From contig JAAYDE010000004.1 of the NCBI GenBank assembly GCA_012729375.1, positions 3,528-67,527 on the forward strand: DNA of 64,000 nt. The letters are read 5' to 3'. Of this stretch, positions 9,822-34,351 are shown piece after piece; position 1 is the stretch's first letter, and each line of letters begins with the position of its first letter. The notes under the pieces are model-generated. The model was not told the DNA's origin, made no database searches, and saw only the letters and a program-made list of their open reading frames with translations. The DNA is from Deltaproteobacteria bacterium. GTDB taxonomy: Bacteria > Desulfobacterota > Desulfuromonadia > Desulfuromonadales > JAAYDE01. The translations under genes and the position numbers were made by a program.

Positions 9822-10012
9822 CTGGTTCCTGCAGCGGCGAGGCGGCACGCCTGCCTTTTTTGTTCTCAGCGAACGAGAATTGTCCCTTTTCCCCGGGGAA
9901 AAGAGGCTCTTCTTTGGAAATAAGATAAAATTCTCTTTATAGGACCAAGGGGCACAAAGTTTTTGTTTTTTTATACTGACCGGAAGTCTGTTAGGAAAGG
10001 GAATTGCATAAG

Positions 10013-10702
10013 ATGACCTTGCCTGAAGAAATGGTGATGTTTGCCGGCAGGCTTTTGCTGGCCGCCTTTTTGGGTGGGCTCATCGGCCTGGAGCGGGAGT
10101 ACCACGGTCGTGATGCTGGCTTCCGTACCCATCTTCTGGTGGCCATGGGCGCCTGCCTTATGGTTTTCATTTCGGAGTATTTTTATTTCCGCTACGGCGC
10201 TGAATCAGAGCTGGGAATCATCCGTCTCGACCCGACCCGGATCGCCGCCCAGATAGTGACCGGAATCGGCTTCCTTGGCGCCGGAGCGATTCTGCGCGAA
10301 GGTCTTTCGGTGCGTGGATTGACTACCGCGGCCTGTCTTTGGCTGGTGGCCGGACTGGGCATGGCGGTAGGGGTAGGGCTTTATTTTCCGGCTGTTTTCG
10401 CCACCCTTCTTTCCTTGCTCACCTTGTGGATCCTCAAAAAGGTGGAAAGGCGGGTGCGACGCGGTTCCTTCCGGATTCTGACCGTCCACTGCGTGGCGGA
10501 AGACGGTACGCTGGACAAGCTGAGAACTTTTTTGACGGAAAGAAAGATCGAGATCTTCGACTTCTCCCTGGAGAGAAATCTGACCAGCCGGGAAATGAAG
10601 ATCGACCTGACCATTCGCATTCGTCCCGAGGCCCAAACGATTACTCCGCTGATGGAATCGGTAGCGGCGCTGGAATACGTCAACAAGGTGGTTTTCCGCT
10701 AA
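10013..10702 (+). CDS. mgtC: MgtC/SapB family membrane protein
   Basis: LGGLIGLEREYHGRDAGFRTHLLV block. N-terminal membrane domain plus a C-terminal soluble ACT-like domain. ATG at 10013 (the track starts at TTG 10004). Confidence 0.8.
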   Translation: MTLPEEMVMFAGRLLLAAFLGGLIGLEREYHGRDAGFRTHLLVAMGACLMVFISEYFYFRYGAESELGIIRLDPTRIAAQIVTGIGFLGAGAILREGLSVRGLTTAACLWLVAGLGMAVGVGLYFPAVFATLLSLLTLWILKKVERRVRRGSFRILTVHCVAEDGTLDKLRTFLTERKIEIFDFSLERNLTSREMKIDLTIRIRPEAQTITPLMESVAALEYVNKVVFR

Positions 10703-10761
10703 ACTTTGTTATCTATTTTTCAGCCTGGCAAAACGGGTCAGGTCGTTTGAAGGGGGAATGG

Positions 10762-11520
10762 GTGAATAAGGAAAAAATACTTCTGGTCGATGATGTCGCG
10801 CCTTTTCTGGACCTGGAGAGGTCTTTTTTCGATGAAGAACGTTTTGATGTTTTGACCGCCGGTTCCGGGCTCGAGGCGGTGCGGATTGTGTCCCGCCAGC
10901 CGCCGGCGCTGATTTTCATGGACCTTCACATGCCCGACATGAACGGGGATGAAGCCTGCGCCCTGATCAAGAGCGACCCGGTTTTTAAAAGTATTCCGAT
11001 CATTCTGGTGACCCATCCCGATGAAGATGACATCGCCAAATGTCGGGCCAGCGGTTGCGAGGGGTATATTTTCAAACCAGTCAGCCGCCATGATTTTGCG
11101 GAAGCGGTCAAACAATTCCTGGGAAAGGATACACGAATGGCGGTTCGCGTGCCTGTTCGTCTGGTCATTCGCTACAAACTTGAAGGGGATACCCGCGTCC
11201 TTGAACGCTATGCCGTCAACATGAGCAGTGGCGGGGTTTTTCTGGAAACCGAGGATGTCCTTCCGGAAAACACTCCTCTTTCGCTGGCTTTCATTCTCCC
11301 CGGCGAGGGCAGCGAGGTCTCCTGTGCGGGGCGCGTGGCCTGGGTCAATGGCCCTCAACACAGGGTGAATCCCAATCTGCCGGCGGGGATGGGAATCCAG
11401 TTCGTTGTCAATCAGTTTCAGGAACTCAGCGCCATCCGCAAGTACCTGCAACTGGTCAACGATGGAAAAGAGGAGGATTCGCTCCAGAGTGAGGGCAACT
11501 GTTCTCATCTCCCTGTCTGA
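10762..11520 (+). CDS. Response regulator receiver domain fused to a PilZ (c-di-GMP-binding) domain
   Basis: GTG start at 10762 preceded by AAGGGGGAA. REC domain (LLVDD, FMDLHMPDMNG, KP). PilZ motifs RVPVR (RxxxR) and NMSSGG (D/NxSxxG). Confidence 0.85.
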   Translation: MNKEKILLVDDVAPFLDLERSFFDEERFDVLTAGSGLEAVRIVSRQPPALIFMDLHMPDMNGDEACALIKSDPVFKSIPIILVTHPDEDDIAKCRASGCEGYIFKPVSRHDFAEAVKQFLGKDTRMAVRVPVRLVIRYKLEGDTRVLERYAVNMSSGGVFLETEDVLPENTPLSLAFILPGEGSEVSCAGRVAWVNGPQHRVNPNLPAGMGIQFVVNQFQELSAIRKYLQLVNDGKEEDSLQSEGNCSHLPV

Positions 11521-12798: not shown

Positions 12799-13587
12799 AT
12801 GTTGGCTTTTCCCCAAATCGATCCGGTGCTGATCCGCATAGGACCTCTGGCGGTTCGCTGGTACGGGCTCATGTATCTATTGGCTTTTGGTGTCGGGTAC
12901 CTGGTGATCCGTGGCCTGGGCCGGCGGCGGAATGTCGCCATGGCCGACACAACCGCTTCCGACCTGCTGTTTCACGCCATGCTCGGAGTCATCCTCGGCG
13001 GCCGTCTTGGCTATGTCCTTTTCTACAATCCCGGTTATTACTTGCGGCATCCCTTGCGCATCTTTGCCGTCTGGGAAGGGGGGATGAGCTTCCACGGGGG
13101 GCTTCTGGGGGTGGTCGCCGCGGTGCTGATCTTCAGTTACCGAAAAAGGTTGCCGGTGTTGCTGGTGGCCGACATCATGGCCGCCGCGGCGGCTCCCGGC
13201 CTTTTTTTCGGACGCATCGGCAACTTCATCAACGGTGAGTTGTGGGGCCGGGTCACCGATCTTCCCTGGGGGATGGTCTTTCCCGGCGCCGGTTCGGCGC
13301 CGCGCCATCCCAGCCAACTTTATGAAGCCCTGCTCGAGGGCCTGGTGCTGACGGTGGTACTCCTCCTTCTGCACCGCCGCAAGGTTGCCCACGGCGTTCC
13401 TTTTTTCACTTTTTTCCTACTGTACGGGGTGTTCCGCTTCGCCGTCGAGTTCGTCCGTGAGCCGGACGCCCATCTCGGCTATCTGTGGGCTGGCGCCACC
13501 ATGGGACAGCTCCTTTCCCTGCCCATGATCGGCTTGGGTATAGTCGGCTTGATGCTGGTTTTAAAAAAGAAAAAGGCTCTACGATGA
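12799..13587 (+). CDS. lgt: Prolipoprotein diacylglyceryl transferase
   Basis: 262 aa. Blocks RWYGLMYLLAF, GGRLGYVLFY, FHGGLLG, GRIGNFINGELWG. Confidence 0.9.
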   Translation: MLAFPQIDPVLIRIGPLAVRWYGLMYLLAFGVGYLVIRGLGRRRNVAMADTTASDLLFHAMLGVILGGRLGYVLFYNPGYYLRHPLRIFAVWEGGMSFHGGLLGVVAAVLIFSYRKRLPVLLVADIMAAAAAPGLFFGRIGNFINGELWGRVTDLPWGMVFPGAGSAPRHPSQLYEALLEGLVLTVVLLLLHRRKVAHGVPFFTFFLLYGVFRFAVEFVREPDAHLGYLWAGATMGQLLSLPMIGLGIVGLMLVLKKKKALR

Positions 13588-14261
13588 ACAAAATCAAAGG
13601 GATCATTTTCGACTTCGACGGCGTGCTCTTCGACAGCCTCCACGCCAACCTGGCCTATTACAATACGGTCTTCGAGGCCTTCGGCGCTCCGCCGGTGACC
13701 GCCGACGATGGGGACAAGATGCTGCTCTGCCACACGGCGAACAGCGCCAGGGTTTTTGAGGTTCTGCTGGGGGAGGAAAAACGGGACGCGGCCCTGGCCT
13801 TCGCCGCCGACCTCGATTTCCACCGTTTCGTGCCGCTGATGGAACTGGAGCCGGGCCTTCTTCCCGCGTTGCGGGATTTGCATCAGAGCGTGACGCTGGC
13901 CGTGGCCACCAACCGCAGCGGCAGCACTTACGCGATCCTCGAACATTTTGACCTGGCCCGCTATTTCCGCACCGTGGTGACCTGTCAGGACGTGACCCGG
14001 CCCAAGCCCGATCCGGAGATGCTGCTGCTGGCGGCAGCGCGGATCGGGGCGGCACGGGACGAAGTGCTTTATGTGGGGGATTCGGAATTGGATCGGCGGG
14101 CGGCGGAGGCCGCGGGAATGTTTTTCCTCGACTACAAGGGGGCGGCCGGAGGAACCCTGAGGATCGATGGTCACTCCGAGCTGGTGTCCCTCTTTTTGAG
14201 CGGCGGCCTGGAGAGACGCTTGACCATCTCCAGCACGTTGCCTCCGTCCACCCTGCGGTAG
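13584..14261 (+). CDS. HAD-superfamily hydrolase (phosphoglycolate phosphatase-like subfamily IA)
   Basis: ATG at 13584 overlaps the lgt stop (ATGA). Motif I IIFDFDGVLFDS and motif III/IV YVGDSELD. The 3' end overlaps the convergent kinase gene by 91 nt. Confidence 0.8.
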   Translation: MNKIKGIIFDFDGVLFDSLHANLAYYNTVFEAFGAPPVTADDGDKMLLCHTANSARVFEVLLGEEKRDAALAFAADLDFHRFVPLMELEPGLLPALRDLHQSVTLAVATNRSGSTYAILEHFDLARYFRTVVTCQDVTRPKPDPEMLLLAAARIGAARDEVLYVGDSELDRRAAEAAGMFFLDYKGAAGGTLRIDGHSELVSLFLSGGLERRLTISSTLPPSTLR

Positions 14262-14629
14262 GAAACCTCGTCCATCAGGCAGCGGATGATGTGGATTCCC
14301 CGTCCATGATCGTTGAGGATGTTTTCATCGGGAGGGGGCAGGGAGTTGATGTCGAACCCCTGGCCCTGGTCGTGGACGCGGATGCGCAGGCAGTCGTTAT
14401 CGATGCCGATGGAGATGTGGACCTCCTTGTCGGGATCGGCCACGTTGCCGTGGATCATGGCGTTGGCGATCGATTCGGTCAGCACCAGGTTGATGTGGTA
14501 GGCCAGTTCTTCCCGGTCCCCGCCGTATCTATCGAGGGTGCGGGCGAGGTTCTCCCCGATGTTGCCGATCAGACTCAGGTAACGGGTCTTGTTGGGAATG
14601 CGGATATTGACTTCGATTTTGTCGTGCAT
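14171..14629 (-). CDS. RsbW/SpoIIAB-like anti-sigma-type serine kinase (HATPase_c)
   Basis: 152 aa. N-box ESIANAMIHGN and G-box HDQGQGF...GRGIHII. Confidence 0.85.
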   Translation of the reverse strand: MHDKIEVNIRIPNKTRYLSLIGNIGENLARTLDRYGGDREELAYHINLVLTESIANAMIHGNVADPDKEVHISIGIDNDCLRIRVHDQGQGFDINSLPPPDENILNDHGRGIHIIRCLMDEVSYRRVDGGNVLEMVKRLSRPPLKKRDTSSE

Positions 14630-14648
14630 ACCAACCCGGGTGAGGCGC

Positions 14649-14984
14649 TCAGAAGCTGGCCAGGGCTTCCGGAACGCCGGCGAAGATTTCGAAAACCCGA
14701 TGCAAACGGGTCAGCTCAAACATCGATTTCACCTGTGTCTGCAGGCCGCAGAGTTTGAGGCTGCCGTTGCGGGCGGTAGCGTTTTTGAAACCCGACACCA
14801 GGGCGCCGAGGCCGGAGGAATCGATGAAGCGCACTCCTTTCAGATCGATGATCATGTTGTTCCTGCCCGCCTCGAAAAGGCTCAGCATCTGGGATTTGAA
14901 TTCGTTGCTGTTGTGGGCGTCCAGGCGCTCTTCCTTCAATTCGACGATTACCGCTTTTTCATGCTCCGTGACATCGCAGTTCAT
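14649..14984 (-). CDS. STAS-domain anti-sigma-factor antagonist (RsbV/SpoIIAA-like)
   Basis: FIDSSGLGALV with the phosphorylatable Ser. ATG at 14984 preceded by GGAGGAA at 5-nt spacing (the track ORF extends to 15011). Confidence 0.85.
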   Translation of the reverse strand: MNCDVTEHEKAVIVELKEERLDAHNSNEFKSQMLSLFEAGRNNMIIDLKGVRFIDSSGLGALVSGFKNATARNGSLKLCGLQTQVKSMFELTRLHRVFEIFAGVPEALASF

Positions 14985-15229
14985 GCCGGTTCCTCCGCTG
15001 ATGGTGTCCAATGATTTTCAACGTCCATGAAAAACCAAATTTTTATAAACATAACACAGTTTATTCCCGGCGGGCGGAAAACCTGTCATCTGTGGACGCC
15101 GCGAAAGTCAAGATTTTGGCTTTCGCGACCCGGATTGCGGGTTCGCCAAAGCGCCGGCCGGGACCCAAGCGATTTCCCATGATAAAACGGCTTCATGAAA
15201 ACCCAGGGCGCCGTTTTAAAGCCGTTCTC

Positions 15230-18200
15230 TCACTTCTCCTCCACTTTGATAATCACCAGGGAAACGTCATCCTCGAGACTCTCCCTGCCGGAGAATTGGC
15301 GCACCGTGTTCAACAGTTCGACGGCGATCTCGGTGGGGTGGAGCTTGCGGCTGTTTTTAAGAAAAATTCGCAGACGCGCCTCGCCGAAAAGTTCCTGATT
15401 GTCGTCGCGGGCCTCGATAATGCCGTCCGTGTAAAGGAGCAGGATGTCGCCGGGAGCGAGGGTTTCCGTTTTTTCCTCGAAAGTGACCTCTTCCTTGATG
15501 CCGAGGATCAGCCCTTCGGCGTCCAAAAGCAGGCATTTTCCGGTGGCGGCGCGGAACAGCAAAGGCGGGTTGTGGCCGGCGCTGGCGTAGCTGAAGCGGC
15601 GGCTTTCGGGGTCGAGGCGCAGGTAGAAGAGGGTGATGAAGAGTTCCGCTTTGCTCAGGTCACGGTTGAAGAAGCGGTTCAGCGCCTGCATGATGCCGGC
15701 CGGCCCGGAAAAGTTGTGATACTGGGCATGGATGAAGGTCCGTGCCTCGGCCATCATCAGGGCGGCGCCGACATTGTGGCCGGAGACATCGGCGATGAGG
15801 ATGTCGAGGCTGCGGTCGCCGTTGATCAGAACGTCGTAATAGTCCCCGCCCACCTGACTGGCGGGTTCGCAGAAACCGGCCAGAGACAGCCCTTTGATCT
15901 GGGGCAGTTTGGCTGGCAGCAGGCTGAACTGGATGCGTTTGGCGATCTCCATCTCCTTCTGGTGTTCCTTGGCCTCCAGCAGCTTTTCCGTTTGCTGGGC
16001 GTTGCGCCAGGCCACTCCCAGCTGACCGGCCAGGCTGGTGAAGAACTCGGTGAATTCCTCGGTGAAAATCCCCTTGATGGTCCTGGAATAAGCGGAAAGC
16101 ACTCCCACCGGCTGGTTCTCGATGACAATGGGTGTGTGGGCCATCGATTTGATTCCTTCCCGGCGGATTATTTTTACCGAATCTGGATTGGTGACCGTTT
16201 CCGCGTCGTTGATGATGACCAGCGAATTCTTGCGGAAGGATTCAGTGACAAAGGTCTGTTCATGGAGCTGAATCCTCGAGGAGAGGAGATGCCCTTCGGT
16301 CATGCCGATCTGGCTTTTGACGACGAGGGCGTTCTGGGCCGGGTCGAAGATGCGGATGATGCACAAATCGAGCATGAACTGCTGTTCCAGAAGGCGCAGG
16401 ATATCGTCGAGAATGGTCTGCAACCCCTTGCCGCTGGCCACCATCCGCGCCGCTTCGTAGAGGACGCTAAGCTGCTCGCGGCTGGCGTTGCGGCTCAAGG
16501 TGACGTTGCCGAAGATATCGAAAACATCCTCCATCTTGCTGCCGCGGGCGGAAAGGTAATTTTCGATAATGATGCGTGCCGGCGCGGCCCCAACCGAACC
16601 CGCCAGGGTTTTTTCGGTGAATCGCTTGAGGGCCGGGACCTCCTGATCGGGGAGGGAGCCGCGGAGGTCGATGCCCTTATCCTTCAGATAGTCGCCGATG
16701 GCCGACTGGGCTCTCTCCTCACCGATGAACTTGGTCATCAACTCGACGAACTCGCGGACGCTGGGCGCTTTGCTGAGAATCTTCATGCCCGCCGGTTCGG
16801 CGGGGGGAGAGAGGGCATGGACGAAGCGGTCGACCTGTTCCAGTTCGCGGGGGGTGAGTCGGCCGAAGACGGATATAACCAGGAAGGAGCCGAGATTGAA
16901 CAGCAGGCTCCAGAACAGGGCGTGGGACCAGACGTCCAGTCCGGCCAGGCCGAAAAGGGCATGGGGGCGGAGCCATGAAATGCCCCAGGGGCCTTCTCCC
17001 AGGATGTCGCCGGGAAGCCAGCCGGAAGCGATCAGGGAAGGAATGAGCAGGGTGTAGCCCCAGATCAGGAAACCGGCGACCAGACCCGTGAGCGCTCCCC
17101 GGCGCGAGGCTTTTTCCCAGAGCAGGCCGCCGATCAGGGAGGGCGCGAACTGGACGGCGGCGACAAAGGAAATGAGCACGATATTGATCAGGCCGTAGCT
17201 GTCGGAAAGGGCTTTGTCGTAGAAATAGCCGCCGAGAATGATCAGAAAGATGGCAATCCGTTTGGTGTTGATGAGCATGCCGGAAAGGGAGGCGGCGCCG
17301 CTGCGGATCTTGAGGACGGCGGGGACCACCAGGTTGTTGAGGATCATGGTGGATAGGGCCACGGAAGTCACCATCACCATGCCCGCCGCGGCCGACAGGC
17401 CGCCGAGGAAGATCAGCAGGGTCAGCCAGGGCGGTCCCTTCTCCATGGGCAGGCGGAGGACGAAATAGTCGGCGGGAACGGCGCTGGCGCTGAAGAAAAC
17501 CAGTCCGGCCAGGGCGATGGGGATGATGAAGAGGGAGAATAGGAGCATGTAGGCCGGGAACAGCCACATGGCGGTGCGGATGTGTTTCTCCCGGCTGTTT
17601 TCGATGACCATGAGGTGAAACTGGCCGGGGAGACAGAGCGGGGCCAGCATGCCGATGATCAGCAGGGTAAACCACTGGGTGTAAGTAATGGTTGCGGTGG
17701 GCAGGGAAAGAAGCGCACCGGCCTGGTCGGCATGGCGGAAAAATTGCCGAAGGAGATCGTCGAGACCGTCAAAAAGACCGAAAGTGACAAAAAAACCGAG
17801 GGCCAAAAAGGCGCACAGTTTGACCAGGGATTCCAGGGCGACGGCGGCGATGAGCCCGTCATGGCGCTCCGAAGCGTCGAGGTGACGGGCACCGAAGAGA
17901 ACACAGAAAAGACCGAGGAGCAGGGCGATGATCAGGCCGCTGTCGATATAGGAGGGCAGGGAGGGCGACACGGCCGCCGGAACCTTTACCATTTGTTCGG
18001 CGGTGACGGAAAGCAGGTCGAAGGTGTTGAACAGATCGATCAGATGTTGGGGGCTGACCACCGGTGGAATCGACAGCATGTTGAAGGTGGTGGAAATGGC
18101 CCGCAGCTGGATGGCGATGTAGGGAAGGGTGCCGATGACGCAGAAAAGGGTTACCAGGGCACCGATGGAGGCCGATTTGCCGTAGCGGCTGGATATGAAG

Positions 18201-18511
18201 TCGGCGAAGCTGACGATGTGCTGTTCCCGGCTGGCCCGCACCATGCGCCGCAGCAGCAGCCACCAGGTTGTCGCGATAAGGCTGGGGCCGAGGAACAGGG
18301 GGAGAAAATCGAGGCCTTGGGTGGCCATCCTTCCTGTCGCACCGTAAAAGGTCCAGGCGCTCAGAAAAACATTGAGGGAAAGGGCGTAGACATAGGCGTT
18401 GGCGGTGATACTGTGGCCGGCCTTGCGGCACTTGTCGGCATAGAAGGCAACTCCGAACAGCACGCCGAAATAGAGCAGGGAAGTGCCGGCGACGATGGCG
18501 AAGGGGATCAT
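15230..18511 (-). CDS. Sodium:solute symporter (SSF/SLC5)-like membrane domain fused to GAF and PP2C/SpoIIE phosphatase domains
   Basis: 1093 aa. The N-terminal ~560 aa is polytopic and SSF-like. A central GAF-like region follows. The C-terminus carries SpoIIE-type PP2C motifs (GGDYYDV, ADVSGHNVGAALMMA, LLLYTDGIIEA, DDVSLVIIKV). Confidence 0.85.
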   Translation of the reverse strand: MIPFAIVAGTSLLYFGVLFGVAFYADKCRKAGHSITANAYVYALSLNVFLSAWTFYGATGRMATQGLDFLPLFLGPSLIATTWWLLLRRMVRASREQHIVSFADFISSRYGKSASIGALVTLFCVIGTLPYIAIQLRAISTTFNMLSIPPVVSPQHLIDLFNTFDLLSVTAEQMVKVPAAVSPSLPSYIDSGLIIALLLGLFCVLFGARHLDASERHDGLIAAVALESLVKLCAFLALGFFVTFGLFDGLDDLLRQFFRHADQAGALLSLPTATITYTQWFTLLIIGMLAPLCLPGQFHLMVIENSREKHIRTAMWLFPAYMLLFSLFIIPIALAGLVFFSASAVPADYFVLRLPMEKGPPWLTLLIFLGGLSAAAGMVMVTSVALSTMILNNLVVPAVLKIRSGAASLSGMLINTKRIAIFLIILGGYFYDKALSDSYGLINIVLISFVAAVQFAPSLIGGLLWEKASRRGALTGLVAGFLIWGYTLLIPSLIASGWLPGDILGEGPWGISWLRPHALFGLAGLDVWSHALFWSLLFNLGSFLVISVFGRLTPRELEQVDRFVHALSPPAEPAGMKILSKAPSVREFVELMTKFIGEERAQSAIGDYLKDKGIDLRGSLPDQEVPALKRFTEKTLAGSVGAAPARIIIENYLSARGSKMEDVFDIFGNVTLSRNASREQLSVLYEAARMVASGKGLQTILDDILRLLEQQFMLDLCIIRIFDPAQNALVVKSQIGMTEGHLLSSRIQLHEQTFVTESFRKNSLVIINDAETVTNPDSVKIIRREGIKSMAHTPIVIENQPVGVLSAYSRTIKGIFTEEFTEFFTSLAGQLGVAWRNAQQTEKLLEAKEHQKEMEIAKRIQFSLLPAKLPQIKGLSLAGFCEPASQVGGDYYDVLINGDRSLDILIADVSGHNVGAALMMAEARTFIHAQYHNFSGPAGIMQALNRFFNRDLSKAELFITLFYLRLDPESRRFSYASAGHNPPLLFRAATGKCLLLDAEGLILGIKEEVTFEEKTETLAPGDILLLYTDGIIEARDDNQELFGEARLRIFLKNSRKLHPTEIAVELLNTVRQFSGRESLEDDVSLVIIKVEEK

Positions 18512-18762
18512 GGGCGCCTCCGCTTTTGCCGGTTGCCGGCCTCATCCTGTTCGTCGTCCTCTCCTGGGAGGTTCCTGACAAAAAGGAAGATGGCAAGGAT
18601 CAGCAGGCCCCAGGTCAGAAACAGGAAGACAAGGAGAGGGGAAAGCCCGGGGGTTCGCGCCGTATCGCCGAAGATCCCCAGAAAGGGATAGTTGAGGAGA
18701 ATCATACCCGCCGCCAGCAGCAGGCAGATTTCAGGAACGGTTCCCGCAGCGGGTTTCTTCAT
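18508..18762 (-). CDS. 84-aa two-span membrane protein with acidic/basic tail, translationally coupled on both sides
   Basis: Its start overlaps the upstream stop and its stop overlaps the downstream start (ATGA in both cases). Two hydrophobic spans (ICLLLAAGMILLNYPFLGIF, LLVFLFLTWGLLILAIFLFV). Confidence 0.55.
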   Translation of the reverse strand: MKKPAAGTVPEICLLLAAGMILLNYPFLGIFGDTARTPGLSPLLVFLFLTWGLLILAIFLFVRNLPGEDDEQDEAGNRQKRRRP

Positions 18763-20330
18763 CGTCCTCCGGATTTTATCGTTAGCAGTTCCGATAAGAT
18801 GAGACCGACATTATAATCGATCTCGCAGCCGCTGTCGATTTGGATAACCCCCGGAGATTCCGTCACCGCCTCGAAGGTGGCGGCCTGGGAAGCGAGAAGT
18901 TCGAGACGGCCGTCGGAGATGTCTTCCCCGGTGTCTTCGCGGTGCCGCAGACGTTTGCGCAGAATGTCCTCATTGCAGTGAAGGTGGGCCAGCAGAACGG
19001 GCACCCCCAGCTGGCTTCCGAAACGCTGGAAAATTTCCCGGTGGCGGTTTTTACCGAAGGAGGCGTCAACCAGCACCGATTCCCCACTGGCGAGGGCGCG
19101 GCGGGCTTTTTCGGCCAGGGCCAGGTAGGTGGCATCGGTCATGTCCGCGCCATAGATTCCCTGGCCAAAATCATCGCGCACTCTGCTTTGCGGGTCGATT
19201 CCCGCCAGTTCCTTGCGCTGGGCGTCGGAGCGGAGATGGAGCATGCCCGTCGCCGCCGCCAGTTCGGCGCCCAATACCGATTTGCCGGCCCCCATCAGGC
19301 CGCAGGTGAGAATGAGGGTTTGCGGGATCAGGTAGCCCATGGCCAGATTGAAATAGCGGCGCGCCCGTTGCTGCAGAATCCCGTAGGGCTCTTCATCCGG
19401 TCCATGCTGAGCCAGGGCCAGGGAGGTGACCTTGCCGCGCACCCAGGCGCGGTAGGCTTGGTAGAAAGGGATCAGCAAATCGGCGCCGTCCCCCCAGTCG
19501 ATATGCCGGCGGTAATTTTTTACCAGCACCGCGGCCAGATCCCGCCGCCGGCGGAATTCCAGATCCATGAGCAGAAAGGCGAGTTCGGAGAGGATATCGG
19601 AGATTCGAAAGCGGCGGTTGAATTCGATGCAGTCATAGAGCTGGATGGGATCGGTCAGGCAGACATGCTCGCTGTGCAGATCGCCGTGGAGGTCGCGGAC
19701 GAACCCCTTTTCCTCCCGCTGGCGCAGAAGAGGGGCCTGGCGTTCCAAAAACTCTTCGATGAGGGGCCGGGCCGCCGCCAGTCCCCGGGGGGGAATGGTC
19801 TTGCCGGCGAAAGGCTGTGTCTGGGCAAAGTTCTCCCGCCAGTTTTCGCGGATGATATCCAGGTCGGAAAGCCTTTTGCCGGCGGCGGAGGGATGGGCAC
19901 GGCGGTGCATTTCGGCGAGGTAGAGGGCGAGCCTCTCCATCTCCTGGTCCAGTCCGGGGACATCGGCTGCGATCAGGTGGTCGAGCATCCTCTTTTCGGG
20001 AAGGCGTTTCATGAGGACGGCGTATTCGATGGTTTCTCCGGGGCCGGCGAAACGCAGGCTGGAATCCGACCGGCGCAGGGGAACCACTCCCAGGTAGGTG
20101 GCCGGTGCAAACCGCCGGTTCAAACGCACCTCCTCGGTGCAGAAATGACGCCTTTTTTCCAGAGTGCTGAAATCGAGAAAACCGAAATTCACTGCCTTTT
20201 TGATTTTATAGACATGACAATCGGTGAGGTAGAGGCGGGAGGCGTGGGTTTCCACAAAGGAAACGGCGGCGGTTTCCTCGGGGTAGGTTTCTTTTTTCAT
20301 CAACGCCTGGTGCATAAGTTCGATATCCAT
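18759..20330 (-). CDS. Bifunctional APH-like phosphotransferase domain / P-loop (AAA-type kinase) protein
   Basis: Kinase-like LHGDLHSEHV and CIEFN blocks in the N-terminal half. Walker A GLMGAGKS in the C-terminal half. ATG at 20330 (MDIELMHQ...) preferred over the TTG at 20426. Confidence 0.75.
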   Translation of the reverse strand: MDIELMHQALMKKETYPEETAAVSFVETHASRLYLTDCHVYKIKKAVNFGFLDFSTLEKRRHFCTEEVRLNRRFAPATYLGVVPLRRSDSSLRFAGPGETIEYAVLMKRLPEKRMLDHLIAADVPGLDQEMERLALYLAEMHRRAHPSAAGKRLSDLDIIRENWRENFAQTQPFAGKTIPPRGLAAARPLIEEFLERQAPLLRQREEKGFVRDLHGDLHSEHVCLTDPIQLYDCIEFNRRFRISDILSELAFLLMDLEFRRRRDLAAVLVKNYRRHIDWGDGADLLIPFYQAYRAWVRGKVTSLALAQHGPDEEPYGILQQRARRYFNLAMGYLIPQTLILTCGLMGAGKSVLGAELAAATGMLHLRSDAQRKELAGIDPQSRVRDDFGQGIYGADMTDATYLALAEKARRALASGESVLVDASFGKNRHREIFQRFGSQLGVPVLLAHLHCNEDILRKRLRHREDTGEDISDGRLELLASQAATFEAVTESPGVIQIDSGCEIDYNVGLILSELLTIKSGGR

Positions 20331-20817
20331 TGGATCGTTCCTTAGGCTGGTTTTCTTGCGGAAAAGGCTCTTGGTACGATTTTCCGCAAAAGGCGGACTT
20401 CCTTGATCTTGCGAAAAATTTTCCAATTCCGCCAGGAAAATACGGGCTGATTTCTTTTGAGCCGGCCGATCGAAACCAGGCTATCCTTTTTATTCTTGCG
20501 GCCAGGGGCGTTCCAGAGGTTTCCTTCCTTTGCCTTCGCACCTTTTCCCCGTCAGGCCTGGCGTTAGCAGGGGGACGCGGGAGGAGGGGAGCAACGGGTT
20601 GGTTGACCTTTTTCGATAATGCAAAATTATATCCGGGCAGCCCCGTTTCCTTATAAAAACTGTAACATGGCCTGGAAAAGGGGAAAAGAAACCCGCCTCG
20701 AGCGGTATGTGATAACATGACAAAGAAGGAAGGGGCCAAAAGCGTCCCGGCCCGGCTACGATTTGACCCCCGGCGCGGGGCTGTGCTAACTTGCCGCTGA
20801 AATAGCGAGGGAATTCC

Positions 20818-22512
20818 ATGGATTTCCGCCACATGAGGCTTTTTCTGCCGGTCCTGGTCCTGGCCGTCATCGGCTGTGGCCGCTGGCCCGGTTCTTCCCA
20901 AAAGGACGTCTATCCTTTCGGCGCCACGGATGGCGCCGGGAAAGCCGCTTTTTTATTTGCCAAGGCCAATCTTTTTGAAAACCAAGGCCTGATCGGAGAG
21001 GCCCAGGAAACCCTCGGTGAGGCGCTGCGCCTCGATCCCCAAGCCCCCTATCTTCATTTCCGCATGGCTTCCCTCCTCGCCCAGAAAGGAGAGAAGGAAG
21101 CCGCTTTGACTGCGGTGCGCACCGCCCTCGAACTCGATCCGAATCTCATTGACGCCCTTTTCCTGTTGGCCGAGATTCATCTGAACGCCAACGAGCCCGC
21201 CGCAGCGATCCCCCCTTTGCGGCATATTCTGAAACTGGATCCTGAAGAAGAGGGCGCCCGTCTGAAACTGGGAGTGGCCTACTCCCAGAAAGGGGATCAG
21301 CAAGAGGCGATGCGGATTTTTCAGGGAATGCTGGCCAGGGATGCCGATTCCCCCTGGGCGGGTCTGGCTCTGGGGCGCCTTTACCGGCAGCTCGGCATGA
21401 CCGCCGAGGCCGAACAACATTACCGGTCGATTATCGCCCGTCAACCCGGCTTCGAGCCGGTGGTTTTCGAACTGGGGGAACTGCTGGAACAGGCGCGGGC
21501 GTGGGCCAAGGCCGGCGAGGTCTATGACCAGGCGTTGCGGGATGATCCCGGCAATACCGAGATGCGCCTGCGGCTGGCTCAGACATTGGTGATGGAGAAC
21601 CGTCTCGAAGAGGCCATGGGCCACTACCGCTTGGTTCTGGATGCGGAGCCGGACAACCTCGAAGCGCTGCGCAAAAGCGGCCTCATTCACCTCGAACGGC
21701 AGCGCTGGTCCGCGGCGGCCGAATCCTTTGCCCGTCAAGTCCAGCTGCGTCCCGATTGGGATCACGCCCGCTACTACCTGGGCATCGCCTTGGTCCGGGA
21801 CGGTAAGGACGAAGAGGCCCTGGCCGCCTTTTCCGAAATCCGCCCCTGGTCTCCTCTCTACGACGACGCCCTGATCCATATCGGATATCTTTACCATGGC
21901 CTCGGCCGTGGCGACGAGGGGCTGGCATTCATTGAGAAAAACCTCGAGGGGCGGTCGGGAAACCCGGCCCTGTACCGTCTTCTCGGCGCCTTCTATGAGG
22001 ACCGGGGAGATGCGGCCGGCGCCCTGCGGGTTTTGGAGCGGGGTCTCGGGGCTTTCCCCAAGGATACGGACCTGCTCTATCAGAAGGGGATGTTGTTGGA
22101 GAAAACGGGGGCTGGAGAAGCTGCCAAGGCGGTTATGGAGGAAATCCTCCTGCTACAGCCGGAACATGCCGAAGCCATCAATTTCATCGCCTATTCCCTG
22201 GCTGAGCAGGGCCGGGATCTGGATCGCGCCCTGGCTCTTGCCGAACAGGCCCTGGCCCTTCGCGACAGACCCCACATCCGCGACACCCTGGGCTGGGTCC
22301 ACTACAAACGGGGGGACTACGCCGAGGCGCTGAAACATCTCCAAATGGCCCTGGCGGAAATGGGGGACGATCCCGTGGTTCAGGAACACATCGGCGATAC
22401 GCTGGCCGCCCTGGGCCGTTTTCCTGAAGCCATGGCCGCCTACCGTAGGAGCCTGGCCCAGGAACCCGACAACCCGGCGGTGCGCGACAAACTGAGGAAA
22501 CTGGAAGAATGA
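20818..22512 (+). CDS. TPR-repeat lipoprotein
   Basis: Signal peptide with lipobox LAVIGC. More than ten TPR-like repeats (recurring A..Y...L..DP motifs). Confidence 0.8.
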   Translation: MDFRHMRLFLPVLVLAVIGCGRWPGSSQKDVYPFGATDGAGKAAFLFAKANLFENQGLIGEAQETLGEALRLDPQAPYLHFRMASLLAQKGEKEAALTAVRTALELDPNLIDALFLLAEIHLNANEPAAAIPPLRHILKLDPEEEGARLKLGVAYSQKGDQQEAMRIFQGMLARDADSPWAGLALGRLYRQLGMTAEAEQHYRSIIARQPGFEPVVFELGELLEQARAWAKAGEVYDQALRDDPGNTEMRLRLAQTLVMENRLEEAMGHYRLVLDAEPDNLEALRKSGLIHLERQRWSAAAESFARQVQLRPDWDHARYYLGIALVRDGKDEEALAAFSEIRPWSPLYDDALIHIGYLYHGLGRGDEGLAFIEKNLEGRSGNPALYRLLGAFYEDRGDAAGALRVLERGLGAFPKDTDLLYQKGMLLEKTGAGEAAKAVMEEILLLQPEHAEAINFIAYSLAEQGRDLDRALALAEQALALRDRPHIRDTLGWVHYKRGDYAEALKHLQMALAEMGDDPVVQEHIGDTLAALGRFPEAMAAYRRSLAQEPDNPAVRDKLRKLEE

Positions 22513-26277: not shown

Positions 26278-29200
26278 TCACAGCTCCCGGTCGGCCGATC
26301 CCCCTTGCTTTTTGTCTTTGTTCGTTCCGTAGAGCAGGCGGGCGGTGTGCAGCATCCGCGCGGCGGCGCCGGTGTACCAGCTCCAGCCGCCGCGCCCCAC
26401 GTAGCCGGGACCGAAGTAGATGTCGGCGGCCTGCTGGTGGGGGGAAAGGCCGTAAGCGGCCATCCCTTCCGGGGTGGAGCGGCCGAGAGGGGAAATCTTG
26501 CGCCATAATCTTTGCGCCCGGGACCGGTAGTTTTCGGCTTGGGCGGCATTTCCTTTTTCCTTTGCCTGTTCGGCAAGGATCAGCAGAGCGTCGATAAGCC
26601 AGGAAACGCCGTGGGAATATTGGCCGCCGTTTTCCCGCACTCCCGGCGGGTAATCGGCCAGGCGGCCGGGGTAGAGGTCATCCCTTTCGCTGCAGGGCGG
26701 GGCGAACAACTGCACCAGCGTATCCTGCTCCAGTTCCCGCAGGGCCGTTTCCATGGCCGCGGCCCCCCTTTCGAAATCGACGGCGCCGGAAAGGATCGGC
26801 CAGGCGGCCATCAGGGCGTCGACCCGGGTCATCTCTTGCCCGTCATCGGTGACCAGGCGCACGTAGCGGTCTTGTCGCCACATGCCATCGAGGGCTTTCT
26901 GCAGAGCCGCGGCCTCCTTGCGGAAACCTTCCGCCGTGTCCGAATCCCCTCTTTTTTCAGCAAGTTCCACGAAATCCACAAGAATTCCGTAGAGGAAGAA
27001 GCCCATCCAGACGCTTTCCCCCAAGCCTCTGAATCCGGCGCTGTCGAGACCGTCGTTCCAGTCGCCGCTGCCGAGGAGGGGCAGGCCGTGGCGGCCTTTT
27101 CTGGACAGGGTCAGCTCGATGGCCCGCCGGCAGTGTTCGTAGAGGGTGGCGCAATCCCGGGAGGGGCGCGGCGCCACCACCTTGCCGGCGGAAAGGGGGC
27201 CGGGGCGGGGCGCTTCCAGAAAGGGAATCGTTTCCTCCAGAAGCCCCCGGTCGCCGCTGATCTGCAGGTAACGGCAAACCATGTAGGGGAGCCACAGGTG
27301 GGGGTCGGCGGCGCGTCCGCGCAGGCCGATGCCGGTTTTTCCCTCCCAGCTCCGGTGCCACCAGTGAAGCACGTCCCCTTCCCGGAACTGCTGGCCGGCA
27401 TGAAGGAGGAGCTGGTTGCGGACCAGGTCGGGATGGGAGGAAATCAGGGGCAGGACATCCTGCAGCTGGTCGCGGAAGCCGAAGGCGCCGCTGCGTTGAT
27501 AGGGGCCAAGGCGTCCCCAGAGGCGGGATACGAGGATCTGGTAGGGGAGCCAGACATTCGCCAGGCGGTCGATGTCCCCATCGCCGCTTGCCGTTTCGAC
27601 ATGGGGGAGATAGTCCCGCCACCATTGGCAGGTCGCCGCGAAGGCCTGCCGTCCCCGGTCGTTGTCCTGGAAGTTTGCGATCAGGGCTTCCGCCTCGTGA
27701 CGGGTTTGGCACTGGCCGAAGATGAGGGTGAAAGCGGTCTCGCCGCCGGCAGGGACGGTGACGGTGCCGCACAGGGCGGCGCAGCGGAAGCCGTCGTCCG
27801 GCTGGTCGGCATCGGCTCTTCCTTCGGTGACCAGGAAGGGGCGGGTGAGGTCCCGGTCCGGGCCACCGAGGAAGCGGCGGCGCACCGTCTCCACCGCCTC
27901 CACCGGGAAACCCGCCGCGGCGAAGGCCCATCCTTTCCAAAAATCGTTGTGGGGATTGGAGAAAAACAGCGCCGGCAGGTCGGAGCTGCGGGCGGTTTCG
28001 ATCTTGCCCAGGGTGTCCACAGGGGTTTCGCCGAGGAGGATCTGAATATAGGAGACGACCCGGTAGCGCAGGGGCTCGCCGGTGAGGTTGCGGAGCCTTA
28101 CCAGGCGCAGCTCGGCGGGCTGGTCGGGGAGTACGAATTGGGTCATCTCCAGTTCCGCTTCGTCGCCCCGGCTTCGGTAGATCGCGTAGCCAAGTCCCCA
28201 GAGAACTTCATAATCGCGGTCCTTTTTCCTCATGGGAAGAAGATAGGGGGTGTCGGTGCGCTGCGTGGAGAGGTTGTGCAGATAGAGAACCTGGCCCGGC
28301 AGTTGGCAGGGAACCGAATCGGTGTCGAAGGGGGTCAGCCCGTTCTGCTGGGAGTTGTTCATGAAGGAGTAACAGGCGCCGTGATTGCTGACCAGCGTGC
28401 CGTAGCCCAGGGGGTTGGCCATCATGTGGTGCCAGGGGCGGACCGTATTCCAGGGGACGGAAAGTTCGCGCCCGTCGGCGGCATAGCGGAACCGAGGGGG
28501 GAAATCACGGTTTTCTTCGCTGACCGGGGCAGGCGGTGGCGATTTTTGCGCCGCTGCCGATCCCGTAATTGCGCCGAGGATGCGCAGGGCTTCGGCCTCG
28601 CTGCCGGCATAGCCGTTGATGAAGAGGATTTCCGTCGCCGCGAGGGGGGCCAGTTCCACCCGCAGGCGGAGGCTGGCGATGGGGTCGAAACTGTAGTCGA
28701 AAATTCCTTCCTTGGGGGCTTTCCCGGCCTGGTGGAGGGCGGCTGGATGGAGGAGGGTGCCGGAACCGATGAAACGCGGGCGGGAATCCTCGTAACCGGT
28801 CACGGTGATCCCCCGGTCCTTGGCGGCGCGGACGGCGTGGAAGGCCGTTTCCCCGGAGATCCGCCGCCGGGAAGGATCCGCGTCGGCGCTTTTGTTGAGC
28901 CTGTTTTGGGCCAAAACCGCATTGACCGAAGGCAGGAAGCGGGTGCCGACATGGAGGTGGTTGTAGAAAGGGTGGCGGCGGTAGGCGTCGGTGCTGTTCA
29001 TGGCCCACTCCTGATAGCTGATCAGTTCCAGAACGCGGGGTCGTTCCTCGAGGTTGACCAGGCGCAGGCGCCAACTCTCCAGGGGCTCGTCGGGGTCGAC
29101 GCAGAGGCGGGTTTCGACGCGGAGGCCGTCGTCACGGCTGTGGACGAATTCCAGGGTGAGGGGATTGATGGGATTGATCTGCCATGTTCCTTCATCAGGG

Positions 29201-31698: not shown

Positions 31699-31845
31699 GG
31701 GGTGGCTTTCAAAAGGATGAATTTTTCAAAGGGCGCCAAGGAGCGATTACTTTTCAATGGGTAAGCGGAAAACAAAACGATAGTGGCTGGGCATAAAGAG
31801 AGTTTTTTCGTTATGGTAAAACGCTGCGGAATTCACTCCAACGGC

Positions 31846-31883
31846 AACCGGCAAGAAGAAGTGGACCCTTCTTCTTGCCGGTT
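31846..31883 (-). promoter_or_regulatory. 16-bp perfect stem-loop between the opgG/D-like gene and the GH94 gene
   Basis: AACCGGCAAGAAGAAG-TGGACC-CTTCTTCTTGCCGGTT, 30 nt downstream of the upstream stop codon. No U-tract on the transcribed (-) strand. Confidence 0.5.
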
Positions 31884-31913
31884 TATCTCATAGTGGTTTT
31901 GCGTTTGCCGCGG

Positions 31914-33530
31914 TCAGGGCTGATGGACGTAACTCCAGGTTTCGGTCAGCACATCCGCGCCGTTTTTCAGAAAAGCGCGGAGTTCCACGGGGTTTTTCCT
32001 GTCCTGGGGAGGGATCGTGCCGCGGTCGATCTCAAAAACCAGGCGCCACTGGTTGTTGTGGCGGTTTTTATGAAGCTGGTGTTCGACGAGGCGGGCGTTG
32101 GCGCCGACATCGATGATTGCCTGCAGGGGTTCGTTTTCCGCCAGGGCGGCCAGTTCCGCGCCGGTGAAGTCGATGACGAATTTTTTGCGGTCGGCGCCTT
32201 TGCCGGCCGCGGTGCGGGTGGCGACGGCCCAGCCGCCGGGAGGGCGCCGGCCGTCGGCGAAGTAATGCCAGCTCATCCGGTAGTCGAAGCCGATCGGTTG
32301 ACCGATGGCGGGCGGGGTTGCGGGAACCCACATGGCGACGATGTTGTCATGGATCTCCTCGTCGCTGGGAATCATGAACAGAGCCACCCGTCCCGCACCC
32401 CAGGACCCGTTCGGTTGGACCCACAGGCTGGGGCGGTTTTCGTAGTTGCTTTCCATGTCGAGGTAGTGGTCGTAGTCCTGGTCCCGCTTGATGAGACCGA
32501 AGCCCTCGGGATTGACGGTGGAAAAGGAGGTCACCAGCAGGCTGCGCGGGTTGACGAGCGGACGCCAGATCCATTCGCCGTGGCCGGTTTCCATCATCAG
32601 GCCGTCGGAATCGTGGATCTCCGGCCGGAAATCGTCCACCGGGCGGATCGAGGTGTTCTCGCCGTAGTAGAACATGCTGGTCATGGGCGCGATGCCGAGC
32701 TGCTTGATTTCGGTGCGCGGGAACAGGGTGCTGCGCACGTCCATGACCGTTTCCTTGCCCGGATGGATGACAAACTCGTAGGCGCCGCTCAGGCTCGGCC
32801 CGTCGACGAGGGCGTAGAGGGTGATCTGTTTGGCGTCCGCGGCCGGTTTGCGGATCCAGAACTTGCGGAAGTAGGGGAACTCCTCGCCGCTGGGCAACCA
32901 GGTATCGATGGCGACGCCGCGGGCCGAAAGGCCGTAGTTCATGTGTTTGGCGACGGCGCGGAAGTAGCTCGCGCCGACGAAGACGGCCACCTCGTCCTGG
33001 TATTCCAAAGTGTTGATGGGATGGTGGATGCGAAAGCCGGCGAACCCCAGATCCCGGGGCACCATGGCCTTGACCTTGTCGCTTTTGTAGTCGAACTGAT
33101 CCCGTGAAAAGGGAACCTTGTGCACCTTCCCCTTGGCGTCTATGAAGTTGATGGCTACCGTCCGGTCGTAGTAAAGCCCGGGATGGAAAAACTGCAGAGT
33201 GAAGGGGAGCTTTTCATCTTTCCACAGGGCCTTGGCGGGGATAAAGCGGATATCCCGCCACTGGTCGTAACTGATCTTCATGAGCCGCTCGGGGATCTCG
33301 CCGACGGGACTTTTGAAGGGATGCCGGGAAAGGTCGCGGGCTTCGGCGACGGCGTCCCGGTAGGTGAAGGGAGGCGCCGAAGCCAACCCCGATGATGCGG
33401 CCGCAAGCAGGATGGCCAACACCGTGATCAGTCCCCACAACCCTTTCTCCGCAAACCTCAGCCGGCGGGCAGGGGGCGAGTCCTTTTGCTCCGGTGAAAG
33501 ATCAATGGACGATGGCATGGGGCGACGCAT
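31914..33530 (-). CDS. opgD: Periplasmic glucan biosynthesis protein, OpgG/OpgD (MdoG/MdoD) family
   Basis: 538 aa. Blocks FAGFRIHHPIN, GASYFRAV, EEFPYFRKFWI, RPLVNP. The N-terminus has RRLRF followed by a hydrophobic region ending ASA, a possible Tat-type signal as in OpgD. Confidence 0.8.
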   Translation of the reverse strand: MRRPMPSSIDLSPEQKDSPPARRLRFAEKGLWGLITVLAILLAAASSGLASAPPFTYRDAVAEARDLSRHPFKSPVGEIPERLMKISYDQWRDIRFIPAKALWKDEKLPFTLQFFHPGLYYDRTVAINFIDAKGKVHKVPFSRDQFDYKSDKVKAMVPRDLGFAGFRIHHPINTLEYQDEVAVFVGASYFRAVAKHMNYGLSARGVAIDTWLPSGEEFPYFRKFWIRKPAADAKQITLYALVDGPSLSGAYEFVIHPGKETVMDVRSTLFPRTEIKQLGIAPMTSMFYYGENTSIRPVDDFRPEIHDSDGLMMETGHGEWIWRPLVNPRSLLVTSFSTVNPEGFGLIKRDQDYDHYLDMESNYENRPSLWVQPNGSWGAGRVALFMIPSDEEIHDNIVAMWVPATPPAIGQPIGFDYRMSWHYFADGRRPPGGWAVATRTAAGKGADRKKFVIDFTGAELAALAENEPLQAIIDVGANARLVEHQLHKNRHNNQWRLVFEIDRGTIPPQDRKNPVELRAFLKNGADVLTETWSYVHQP

Positions 33531-33640
33531 GGCTTGTTAGTTCCTCTCCTGAAAAATTGTTGATATTGGAAAAGCCGATACATGATGATCCACATCGTGG
33601 GCAAAAAACAAGAGGAAGCTTTATCGGCCCGGCAGGCCGT

Positions 33641-34306
33641 TCAACGCCCTTGCAGGGCCTTGTCGATATCCTCTGTCTTGCCGAGAAAGATGAGCAGGTC
33701 GCTGTCCTTGATGAGGTAGGCGGGGGAAGGAGCCAGGGAAAAGTTCCCGGTCAGGACATCCTTGATGCCGATGACGGTGACATGGTGTTTCTTGCGCAGA
33801 TCGAGGTCGGCAAGGGTTTTGCCCAGATAATGTTGCGGCGCGCTCGCCTCGGTGATGGTGTACTCCTCGGTGAGGGGGATGAATTCGAGGATGTTGGGAA
33901 TGGAAAGGCTGCGGGCGATTTTGACGGCGATGTCCTTTTCCGGAAAGATGACATCGTTGGCTCCCACTTTTTTCAGGATGCGGCCGTGATCTTCGTTGAT
34001 TGCCTTGACCAGGATGCGGGGAACATCCATCTCCTTGAGGTAGAGGGTGATCAGGGTGGCCATATGGGAACGCTCGCCGGTGGAAACGACCACTGCCGTC
34101 ATCTCCTCGATCCCCTGGCCGGCAAGGAACTCCTTGTTGCCGGCGTCGCCGAGAACGGCGTAAGTGCAGTAATCGACGATACGCTGCACCTTTTCCTGAT
34201 CGATGTCGATGGCGACGACCTCGCTTCCCGCCTCGTAAAGAGCCCGGGCGACGTGAAAACCGAAATTTCCCAGCCCGATGACGGCAAAACGGCTCTGTTT
34301 TTTCAT
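33641..34306 (-). CDS. trkA: Trk/Ktr potassium uptake system NAD-binding (RCK) subunit
   Basis: 221 aa. Rossmann GLGNFG plus a C-terminal RCK_C domain. Confidence 0.9.
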   Translation of the reverse strand: MKKQSRFAVIGLGNFGFHVARALYEAGSEVVAIDIDQEKVQRIVDYCTYAVLGDAGNKEFLAGQGIEEMTAVVVSTGERSHMATLITLYLKEMDVPRILVKAINEDHGRILKKVGANDVIFPEKDIAVKIARSLSIPNILEFIPLTEEYTITEASAPQHYLGKTLADLDLRKKHHVTVIGIKDVLTGNFSLAPSPAYLIKDSDLLIFLGKTEDIDKALQGR

Positions 34307-34351
34307 CCTTTGACTCCTTGGCGCCTTGCGGCGCCGATTGGCGGTGGTAAT

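Follow-up and report, generated by a model that had tools for sequence, protein, structure and literature searches.

The DNA considered here is a window of 64,000 nucleotides (nt) from a deltaproteobacterial assembly assigned to the Desulfuromonadales (GCA_012729375.1, contig JAAYDE010000004.1, positions 3,528 to 67,527), and coordinates given below refer to this whole stretch unless another locus is named. Five adjacent genes on its minus strand encode, in the order of their reading, an APH-like/P-loop protein of 523 amino acids (18759-20330), a small membrane peptide of 84 amino acids (18508-18762), an SLC5–STAC–GAF–PP2C phosphatase of 1093 amino acids (15230-18511), a STAS protein of 111 amino acids (14649-14984) and an RsbW-like kinase of 152 amino acids (14171-14629). 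An earlier note on this DNA had placed five open reading frames (ORFs) on the minus strand at these positions, and both the ORF list and the gene calls agree with it, the same five products being obtained by independent calls on identical metagenome contigs. Likewise, the two ATGA overlaps joining the first three genes (18759-18762 and 18508-18511) are present as it described, each preceded by a ribosome-binding site of the GGAGG type, as is the gap of 245 nt between the stop codon of the phosphatase (15230) and the ATG of the STAS gene (14984); the STAS and kinase genes are separated by 19 nt. We consider it probable that the locus specifies a transceptor of the CbrXA type with a partner-switching output, encoded in two transcription units.

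The phosphatase is the protein in which the two halves of this proposal meet. Its N-terminus shares homology with the SLC5–STAC part of the Pseudomonas putida sensor CbrA, the cryo-electron microscopy structure of which has been determined together with the small peptide CbrX (PDB 10ED; PMC13022988). A profile built from 14 orthologs matches chain A of this structure with an E-value of 4.6e-87 over positions 6-633, and the window phosphatase as a single sequence does so over its N-terminal 656 residues (phmmer E 3.4e-64), which upholds the earlier description of the phosphatase as carrying a transporter-like sensor. On the basis of the CbrA homology, the SLC5 (solute:sodium symporter family) domain of the LeuT fold comprises residues 1-563 (16823-18511, minus strand, as for all features of the cluster) and is directly followed by a STAC-like four-helix domain at about residues 573-656 (16544-16795), which aligns with residues 513-595 of CbrA, that is, with its STAC four-helix bundle, and which is the most conserved segment of the phosphatase (median identity 64%). 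The Pfam SSF profile gives no match in the window protein, residues 1-504 yielding nothing useful at E ≤ 10, although many of its orthologs are recognised. Within the SLC5 domain, Lys231 (17819-17821) is invariant in 49 phosphatase homologs and aligns with Lys196 of CbrA, a residue which occupies the Na2 site and has been proposed to make transport proton-coupled (PMC13022988), while the break of transmembrane helix 2 in the substrate pocket, YASAWAFYG in CbrA, reads FLSAWTFYG here. An AlphaFold2 (AF2) model of the full phosphatase has a mean predicted local distance difference test score (pLDDT) of 77.6, and its membrane domain matches SGLT2, NIS and SiaT in Foldseek searches.

Behind the STAC domain the phosphatase departs from CbrA. 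The GAF domain (residues 697-834, 16010-16423; Pfam GAF_2, 4e-15) has a profile match in PDB 2qyb, the GAF domain of a 'putative membrane protein' (E 1e-37), and is connected by a helical linker, delimited by the AF2 secondary structure (residues 835-898, 15818-16009), to a PP2C/SpoIIE phosphatase domain (residues 899-1090, 15242-15817; stop codon 15230-15232; Pfam SpoIIE/PP2C, E 2e-53). The residues D890, D893, D908, G911, H912, D1029, G1030, D1081 and D1082 are invariant in 49 homologs, among them the metal-binding aspartates expected of a PPM/PP2C phosphatase acting in a partner switch. The corresponding part of the ortholog profile also matches the structures of Rv1364c, RssB, SiaA and SpoIIE, and the confidently modelled PP2C domain retrieves SiaA as the best Foldseek match (target-normalised TM-score, TMt, 0.84), followed by RssB, Rv1364c and SpoIIE. 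The model also contains a continuous helix of 46 residues (818-863) ahead of the PP2C domain. Since coiled-coil linkers control phosphatases of the RsbU type by a mechanism proposed to be general (PMC12143880), this helix could be analogous to them. Neither HisKA nor HATPase_c is found in the chain, nor does the protein have the make-up of a histidine kinase working with a response regulator; the phosphatase is therefore not a member of the SLC5/STAC kinase family, with which it shares only the input module. In two relatives the phosphatase gene is called in pieces, at L086:8814-12026 in Desulfuromonas versatilis (688 and 374 amino acids) and at L091:6814-10054 (several fragments), which may reflect frameshifts, pseudogenisation or assembly errors.

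The gene directly upstream of the phosphatase encodes a peptide with two hydrophobic helices, for which Pfam offers no match and nothing useful even at E ≤ 10. Nevertheless, a tblastn comparison places it immediately ahead of the phosphatase in 67 of the 76 loci with enough flanking sequence, the 4-nt overlap of its stop codon with the phosphatase start is kept in 54 of 58 loci, and its alignment displays the motif LN(Y/F)PF..IFN......G.P......W, all of which indicate a real and conserved gene. CbrX is a two-helix hairpin peptide of 58 amino acids, the translation of which is coupled to that of CbrA (PMC6591292) and which remains bound to transmembrane helices TM3 and TM8 of the CbrA SLC5 domain through purification (PMC13022988). 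The peptide of the window resembles CbrX in position, size class, topology and the 4-nt overlap, with no detected sequence homology to it, and we regard it as the likely positional and topological counterpart of CbrX, of a DUF3311-like kind. The latter designation stems from UniRef, where three of the orthologs are labelled DUF3311, and genes of that family are known as neighbours of SSS permease genes, for example beside a rhizobial symporter gene regulated by RpuS/R (PMC9100948). The likeness there consists in a small protein with two transmembrane helices placed beside, and co-regulated with, a membrane protein of the SSS family; the SSS partner in those pairs is a plain permease, whereas here it is a signalling protein, and DUF3311 membership is weakly supported here. 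The 'micro-membrane protein' and the 'SSF' domain listed in the earlier note are thus no oddities; together they match the SLC5–STAC transceptor module of CbrX and CbrA. Within the APH/P-loop gene, at its 3' end and 48 nt ahead of the peptide gene, there is a strong sigma-70-like site (TCGACA-17-TATAAT, 11 of 12 matches, 18810-18838, minus strand). The core operon might have an internal promoter here, or the match may be due to chance, the promoter count of the region being equal to the shuffle expectation.

The pairing of peptide and sensor extends beyond this order. When plasmids were searched by tblastn with a typical ortholog of the 84-residue peptide as query, three genera were found to carry a peptide-like ORF immediately ahead of a gene whose product shares, in its first ~650 residues, 40-43% identity with the SLC5–STAC part of the window phosphatase. 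These proteins are an SLC5–STAC–GGDEF–EAL protein of 1063 amino acids on pAZKH of Azoarcus sp. KH32C (L094:5001-8397, E 2e-165), an SLC5–STAC–HisKA–HATPase_c protein on p1 of Cupriavidus necator (L095:4459-7462) and another on plasmid II of Paracoccus aminovorans (L096:4447-7364), the last with a 4-nt overlap of the small ORF and a response regulator gene following. Since the same pair precedes HisKA–HATPase_c, GGDEF–EAL or PP2C, the input module appears to be independent of the output, and the peptide together with SLC5–STAC constitutes, as judged from these arrangements, a portable two-gene input cassette with at least three output classes, spread over alpha- and betaproteobacteria and the Desulfuromonadales. 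The three natural output swaps on one input (PP2C switch, histidine kinase and GGDEF–EAL) offer a route for testing how general coupling through the STAC domain and the helical linker is, and speak for peptides of the CbrX kind being widespread and conserved in such sensors rather than a peculiarity of Pseudomonas. To our knowledge, studies of CbrA-type transceptors have until now been confined to histidine kinases.

On the output side, the STAS protein is recognised both by Pfam (STAS, 2e-22) and by TIGR00377 (3e-24, above the cut-off of 53 bits), and its relatives in the PDB are TM1442, RsbV and SpoIIAA. It is a single-domain protein with the conserved DSSG serine claimed earlier (D55-S56-S57-G58), of which Ser56 (14817-14819) would be the phosphorylatable residue. 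The 152-residue protein belongs by sequence to the HATPase_c_2 serine kinases and anti-sigma factors (Pfam, 1e-24), with RsbW (6m36, 7e-8) and SpoIIAB as its best relatives in the PDB and with the kinase motifs readable in its sequence (N box ESIANAMIHG, G1 DQGQGF, G2 GRGIHI). The NCBIfam model of RsbW is matched below its cut-off (5e-13); as the equivalog cut-offs of both RsbW and SpoIIAB are left unreached, the kinase is not taken as an ortholog of either. Across the NCBIfam models, four of the five cluster proteins give sub-threshold matches only. These domain assignments support the earlier proposal of a partner-switching triad, made up of the PP2C phosphatase, the STAS protein and the RsbW-like kinase. 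The 3' end of the kinase gene overlaps that of a convergent HAD hydrolase gene on the plus strand by 91 nt (14171-14261), an overlap also called on the identical metagenome contigs.

The STAS and kinase genes probably form a transcription unit of their own. An extended -10 promoter-like motif, TGTTATGTT, is located at 15048-15056 on the minus strand, 72 nt upstream of the STAS ATG, and 46 of 58 loci have the pattern TGnTAnn[ACT]T in the 110 nt ahead of the STAS gene, as compared to 5.7 ± 2.3 in shuffled sequences, mostly at a distance of 55-75 nt; in the alignment of close relatives the block around the motif is likewise conserved. This conservation suggests that STAS and kinase are expressed independently of the sensor. 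The earlier note's picture of the whole cluster as possibly one switch is refined by this finding, the STAS and kinase genes having their own conserved promoter motif. General promoter and terminator scans gave counts no higher than the shuffle expectation, and nothing in 13000-22000 was matched by Rfam under permissive settings. Between the phosphatase and STAS genes, the spacer ranges from 49 to 292 nt across loci with a median of 113 nt, and that of the window, at 245 nt, is longer because it contains about 140 extra bases (about 15085-15229). Directly past the phosphatase stop codon there is an inverted repeat of 8 bp (AACGGCTT at 15226-15219 and AAGCCGTT at 15193-15186, minus strand), which is followed by a run of T.

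A genome scan retrieved 79 related loci, nearly all labelled as Desulfuromonadales, Geobacteraceae or unclassified Deltaproteobacteria, of which the 56 with complete flanks were used for counting gene content; the nearest named relative of the phosphatase, at 85% identity, is found in a metagenome-assembled genome of the Desulfuromonadaceae. All five genes are present in 25 of these 56 loci, peptide, phosphatase, STAS and kinase genes without the APH/P-loop gene in 23, the phosphatase alone in six (the Geobacter type, with no small ORF upstream) and other partial combinations in two. The conserved core thus consists of four genes and occurs in 48 of the 56 loci, an arrangement which, taken together with the peptide/phosphatase overlap in 54 of 58, is far beyond chance. 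The surroundings are also kept: the order ABC permease, SBP_bac_5, DUF4292, TPR, cluster, HAD, lgt and pseudouridine synthase belongs to a syntenic block of ~15 genes, including those of an oligopeptide ABC system, that is maintained across the order. The locus would represent an uncharacterised, order-wide signalling pathway of the metal-reducing Desulfuromonadales, of which cultured and fully sequenced carriers exist; cultured carriers are Desulfuromonas versatilis (AP024355), Desulfuromonas sp. AOP6 (AP022810), D. soudanensis and Geoalkalibacter.

On these grounds we envisage the following sequence of events. The first transcription unit would comprise the optional APH/P-loop gene and the genes of the 84-residue peptide and the 1093-residue phosphatase, coupled in translation, with the peptide packed onto the SLC5 domain in the manner of CbrX on CbrA. 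This domain would bind, and perhaps transport, a small solute, probably in a proton-coupled manner because of the lysine at the Na2-site position. The conformation of the SLC5 domain and the ligand state of the GAF domain would then be relayed via the STAC domain and the long helical linker to the PP2C domain. From the second unit, transcribed from its own conserved extended -10 promoter, the STAS protein and the RsbW-like kinase would be supplied; PP2C would dephosphorylate the phosphorylated STAS protein at Ser56, the kinase would re-phosphorylate it, and the unphosphorylated STAS protein would bind the kinase, causing it to switch partners, with the output encoded elsewhere in the genome. 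What the comparisons above show are the domain identities, the homology to SLC5–STAC of CbrA, the conservation of the four-gene core and of the overlaps, the promoter motif of the second unit and the portability of the input cassette; the physical interactions, the ligand, the target and the sign of regulation in this scheme are what we infer. So far as the SLC5 domain does bind a solute, the switch could be called 'solute-responsive', as it was in the earlier note.

Several observations weigh against this interpretation, or at least against parts of it. With regard to the sensor, CbrA can function without CbrX and, when overexpressed, goes on signalling even after loss of its membrane domain (PMC13022988, PMC6591292), a precedent implying that primary sensing may fall to the GAF domain rather than to the SLC5 domain. 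With regard to the STAC domain, the helices modelled by AF2 (585-596, 598-609, 622-640 and 645-656) are of low confidence (pLDDT 34-67). The kinship of the peptide is also in question, as hmmscan against DUF3311 (PF11755) gives weak matches in 3 of 28 orthologs (best E 0.0086) and none in the peptide of the window, while the profile of the peptide family searched against the PDB did not find the CbrX chain and returned spurious matches to monocarboxylate transporter 8 only. Finally, full-length SLC5–STAC–GAF–PP2C homologs of the Geobacter type (the stand-alone clade of L031, L051, L056, L060, L065, L068, L077 and L078) have neither an upstream small ORF nor an adjacent STAS or kinase gene, and since the loci compared come from one order with ~15-gene synteny, adjacency is weak evidence of functional linkage.

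The nature of the output deserves separate consideration. No Sigma70-family domain was detected among the genes called up to 10 kb from the cluster in both directions or, by Pfam, among the other large window ORFs scanned, and neither D. versatilis nor Desulfuromonas sp. AOP6 has a sigma factor close to its cluster. The earlier observation that no sigma factor lies nearby is therefore sound; such an absence is not unusual, given the precedents of partner switches with a non-adjacent sigma factor or target, namely Chlamydia Rsb, SypE/SypA and BtrUVW (PMC8256260). As the most likely output we regard a sigma factor held by the kinase and encoded elsewhere, such as RpoS or FliA, and as the next most likely a direct action of the STAS protein on a target. 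In the latter case, the unphosphorylated STAS protein would regulate a target other than a sigma factor, in the manner of SypA or BtrV, and the RsbW-like protein would be no more than its kinase. The missing sigma gene among the scanned ORFs is compatible with this possibility, as are the same precedents (PMC8256260) and the fact that the STAS protein is the most conserved of the five (median identity 70%, versus 57% for the kinase). However, two known partners of the STAS protein alone would predict high conservation, and the kinase is a stand-alone protein of RsbW/SpoIIAB size, the best solved relatives of which are true anti-sigma factors, so that we hold this alternative to be a possible but clearly less likely one.

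Another alternative assigns the decisive role to transport, the large protein being primarily a working transporter, with its GAF–PP2C part regulating or reporting transport and the true signal being intracellular and read by the GAF domain. The retention, relative to CbrA, of the substrate-site region and of the Na2-site lysine would fit, CbrA is reported to transport histidine (PMC13022988, PMC7096432), and overexpressed CbrA without its membrane domains continues to sense carbon status (PMC6591292). Against this, it is the coupling element, STAC, that is best conserved in the phosphatase, and the cassette has repeatedly been fused to signalling outputs, which makes this interpretation an unlikely one.

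The APH/P-loop protein raises the question of whether the switch comprises four genes or five. An APH/ePK-like domain (about residues 1-335, 19326-20330) precedes a gluconate-kinase-like P-loop domain (residues 339-523, 18762-19316), and Pfam reports AAA_33 (E 4e-24) and a weak match to APH (E 2e-5), the score for PF01636, 24.9 bits, being narrowly above the cut-off of 23.2. A sequence search of the PDB returned a marginal gluconokinase match only, so that a fold search was required for classification. The AF2 model (pLDDT 90.8; predicted template modelling score, pTM, 0.90) relates the C-terminal domain to gluconate kinase (TMt 0.72) and related P-loop kinases, and the N-terminal domain to APH(2''), homoserine kinase and choline kinase (TMt 0.52-0.60) as well as to the methylthioribose kinase fold. 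The N-terminal half accordingly combines an APH-type kinase fold with the HGD loop and a metal-binding aspartate, the asparagine at D+5 being replaced by His222, and the C-terminal half combines a Walker A motif with a fold like that of gluconate and shikimate kinases. Both halves are probably active, because H215-G-D217, D233 and K350 are invariant in 32 homologs, in which the full conserved elements are H215-G-D217-L-H, D233 and the Walker A sequence G344..G349-K350 (GLMGAGKS). Orthologs are named 'bifunctional aminoglycoside phosphotransferase/ATP-binding protein' by NCBI and UniRef, a family with which the 523-residue protein shares the architecture of an APH-like domain and a P-loop kinase, and to which Mycobacterium tuberculosis Rv2004c may belong. 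We know of no established function for this family and of no other member linked to a partner switch.

Could the five genes nonetheless form one obligatory switch, in which the APH/P-loop protein is integral, for example as a kinase acting on the phosphatase, the STAS protein or the sensed solute? In favour of this one may cite the ATGA overlap of its gene with the peptide gene in the window and the availability of a peptide start with the same 4-nt overlap in about 21 of the 34 loci bearing the gene, the occurrence inside the cluster of seven of the eight close orthologs looked up, and the invariance of the catalytic residues in both domains of what is modelled as a rigid two-domain protein (pTM 0.90). 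In the loci that have it, the gene is invariably flanked by the divergent TPR gene on one side and the peptide gene on the other. Yet it is found in 25 of the 48 fully flanked loci with the four-gene core and is absent from the same chromosomal slot in the other 23; its presence is scattered on the neighbour-joining tree of the phosphatase, a pattern that fits an ancestral gene followed by repeated loss; and adjacency is in any case to be expected under order-wide synteny. In addition, an outlying ortholog of 49% identity lies between minCDE and gidA-gidB-parA-parB (L088, contig JAFZJY010000418.1), which implies that the gene can sit outside the cluster; the contig is labelled Actinomycetaceae, probably owing to a binning error. 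The earlier note had treated the five genes as possibly one switch and had itself named the separation of the APH-like gene from the SSF-PP2C gene in relatives as the finding that would speak against it; the synteny comparison reveals just this separation in 23 of the 48 core-bearing loci. An obligatory five-gene switch is therefore improbable in our estimation, and the APH/P-loop protein is best read as a dedicated but dispensable, lineage-variable accessory outside the core mechanism.

It could also be argued that the five genes are mere neighbours in a conserved block and that the phosphatase has other substrates than the STAS protein encoded next to it, as the ~15-gene synteny, the Geobacter-type homologs lacking an adjacent STAS or kinase gene, and the separate promoter motif of the STAS and kinase genes would allow; but PP2C–STAS–RsbW triads are an established functional unit, and the three triad genes are co-directional and lost together in the Geobacter-type clade, for which reasons we think this very unlikely. 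Least plausible of all, to the point of being a bare conjecture, is a 'transport, trap and sense' relay, in which the SLC5 domain and the peptide would import a solute, the APH/P-loop double kinase would phosphorylate it, the GAF domain would read the product and set the activity of PP2C, and the STAS protein would act on a non-transcriptional target, although such a relay, if true, would be a transceptor pathway without a described counterpart.

The transceptor with partner-switching output, which we favour, can be placed among known systems on both its sides. With CbrX/CbrA of P. putida and, more widely, with the SLC5/STAC kinases CrbS and RpuS, it shares an SLC5 domain of 13 transmembrane helices followed by STAC (the profile match of E 4.6e-87), the lysine at the Na2-site position and an upstream overlapping gene for a small two-helix peptide. 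It differs in its output, a GAF domain and PP2C directed to a STAS/kinase partner switch in place of PAS and histidine kinase domains directed to a response regulator, and in its peptide, which has 84 residues as against the 58 of CbrX, is DUF3311-like and has no detectable sequence similarity to CbrX. With RsbU/V/W of Bacillus subtilis and SpoIIE/SpoIIAA/SpoIIAB it has in common the triad of PP2C, a STAS protein with the DSSG serine and an HATPase_c_2 kinase, along with the helical linker ahead of PP2C; in contrast to these, no sigma gene is found in the operon or the scanned window ORFs, no RsbT or stressosome genes are seen, and the phosphatase, with its transporter-like input, is integral to the membrane. 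RsbU/V/W of Chlamydia trachomatis, SypE/SypA of Vibrio fischeri and BtrU/V/W of Bordetella resemble it in having the core without an adjacent cognate sigma factor, the output being distal or not a sigma factor, but their sensors are periplasmic or receiver domains rather than SLC5–STAC–GAF, and no small peptide partner is known there. RsbZ of Clostridioides difficile also has a GAF domain joined to PP2C via a helical linker, but is soluble, and an SSS-GAF-PP2C_SIG-HATPase_c architecture has been noted computationally in Actinobacteria (PMC7918813), in which the kinase is fused into the same chain whereas here it is a separate protein; neither for RsbZ nor for the actinobacterial proteins has a STAC domain or a peptide partner been characterised. 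A literature search found no paper on an SLC5–STAC–PP2C system, its peptide partner, or a Geobacter or Desulfuromonas partner switch of such a type. The locus would thus amount to a new wiring of known parts, in which a two-gene input cassette is connected to a PP2C partner switch.

Some features of the surrounding DNA may be mentioned in conclusion. Near the cluster, at 26278-39289 and 10004-11520, the window contains genes of an envelope or osmotic type, encoding a GH94 glucan phosphorylase/synthase-like protein of 1806 amino acids, MdoG, TrkH, an OmpA-VWA protein and MscL, and further nearby genes encode MgtC and a response-regulator-PilZ protein; a functional tie between the envelope/osmotic neighbours and the switch would be pure speculation. 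Further away, at 59392-60372 on the plus strand, a single ORF encodes an IS200-like Y1 transposase domain together with a DnaA C-terminal helix-turn-helix domain.

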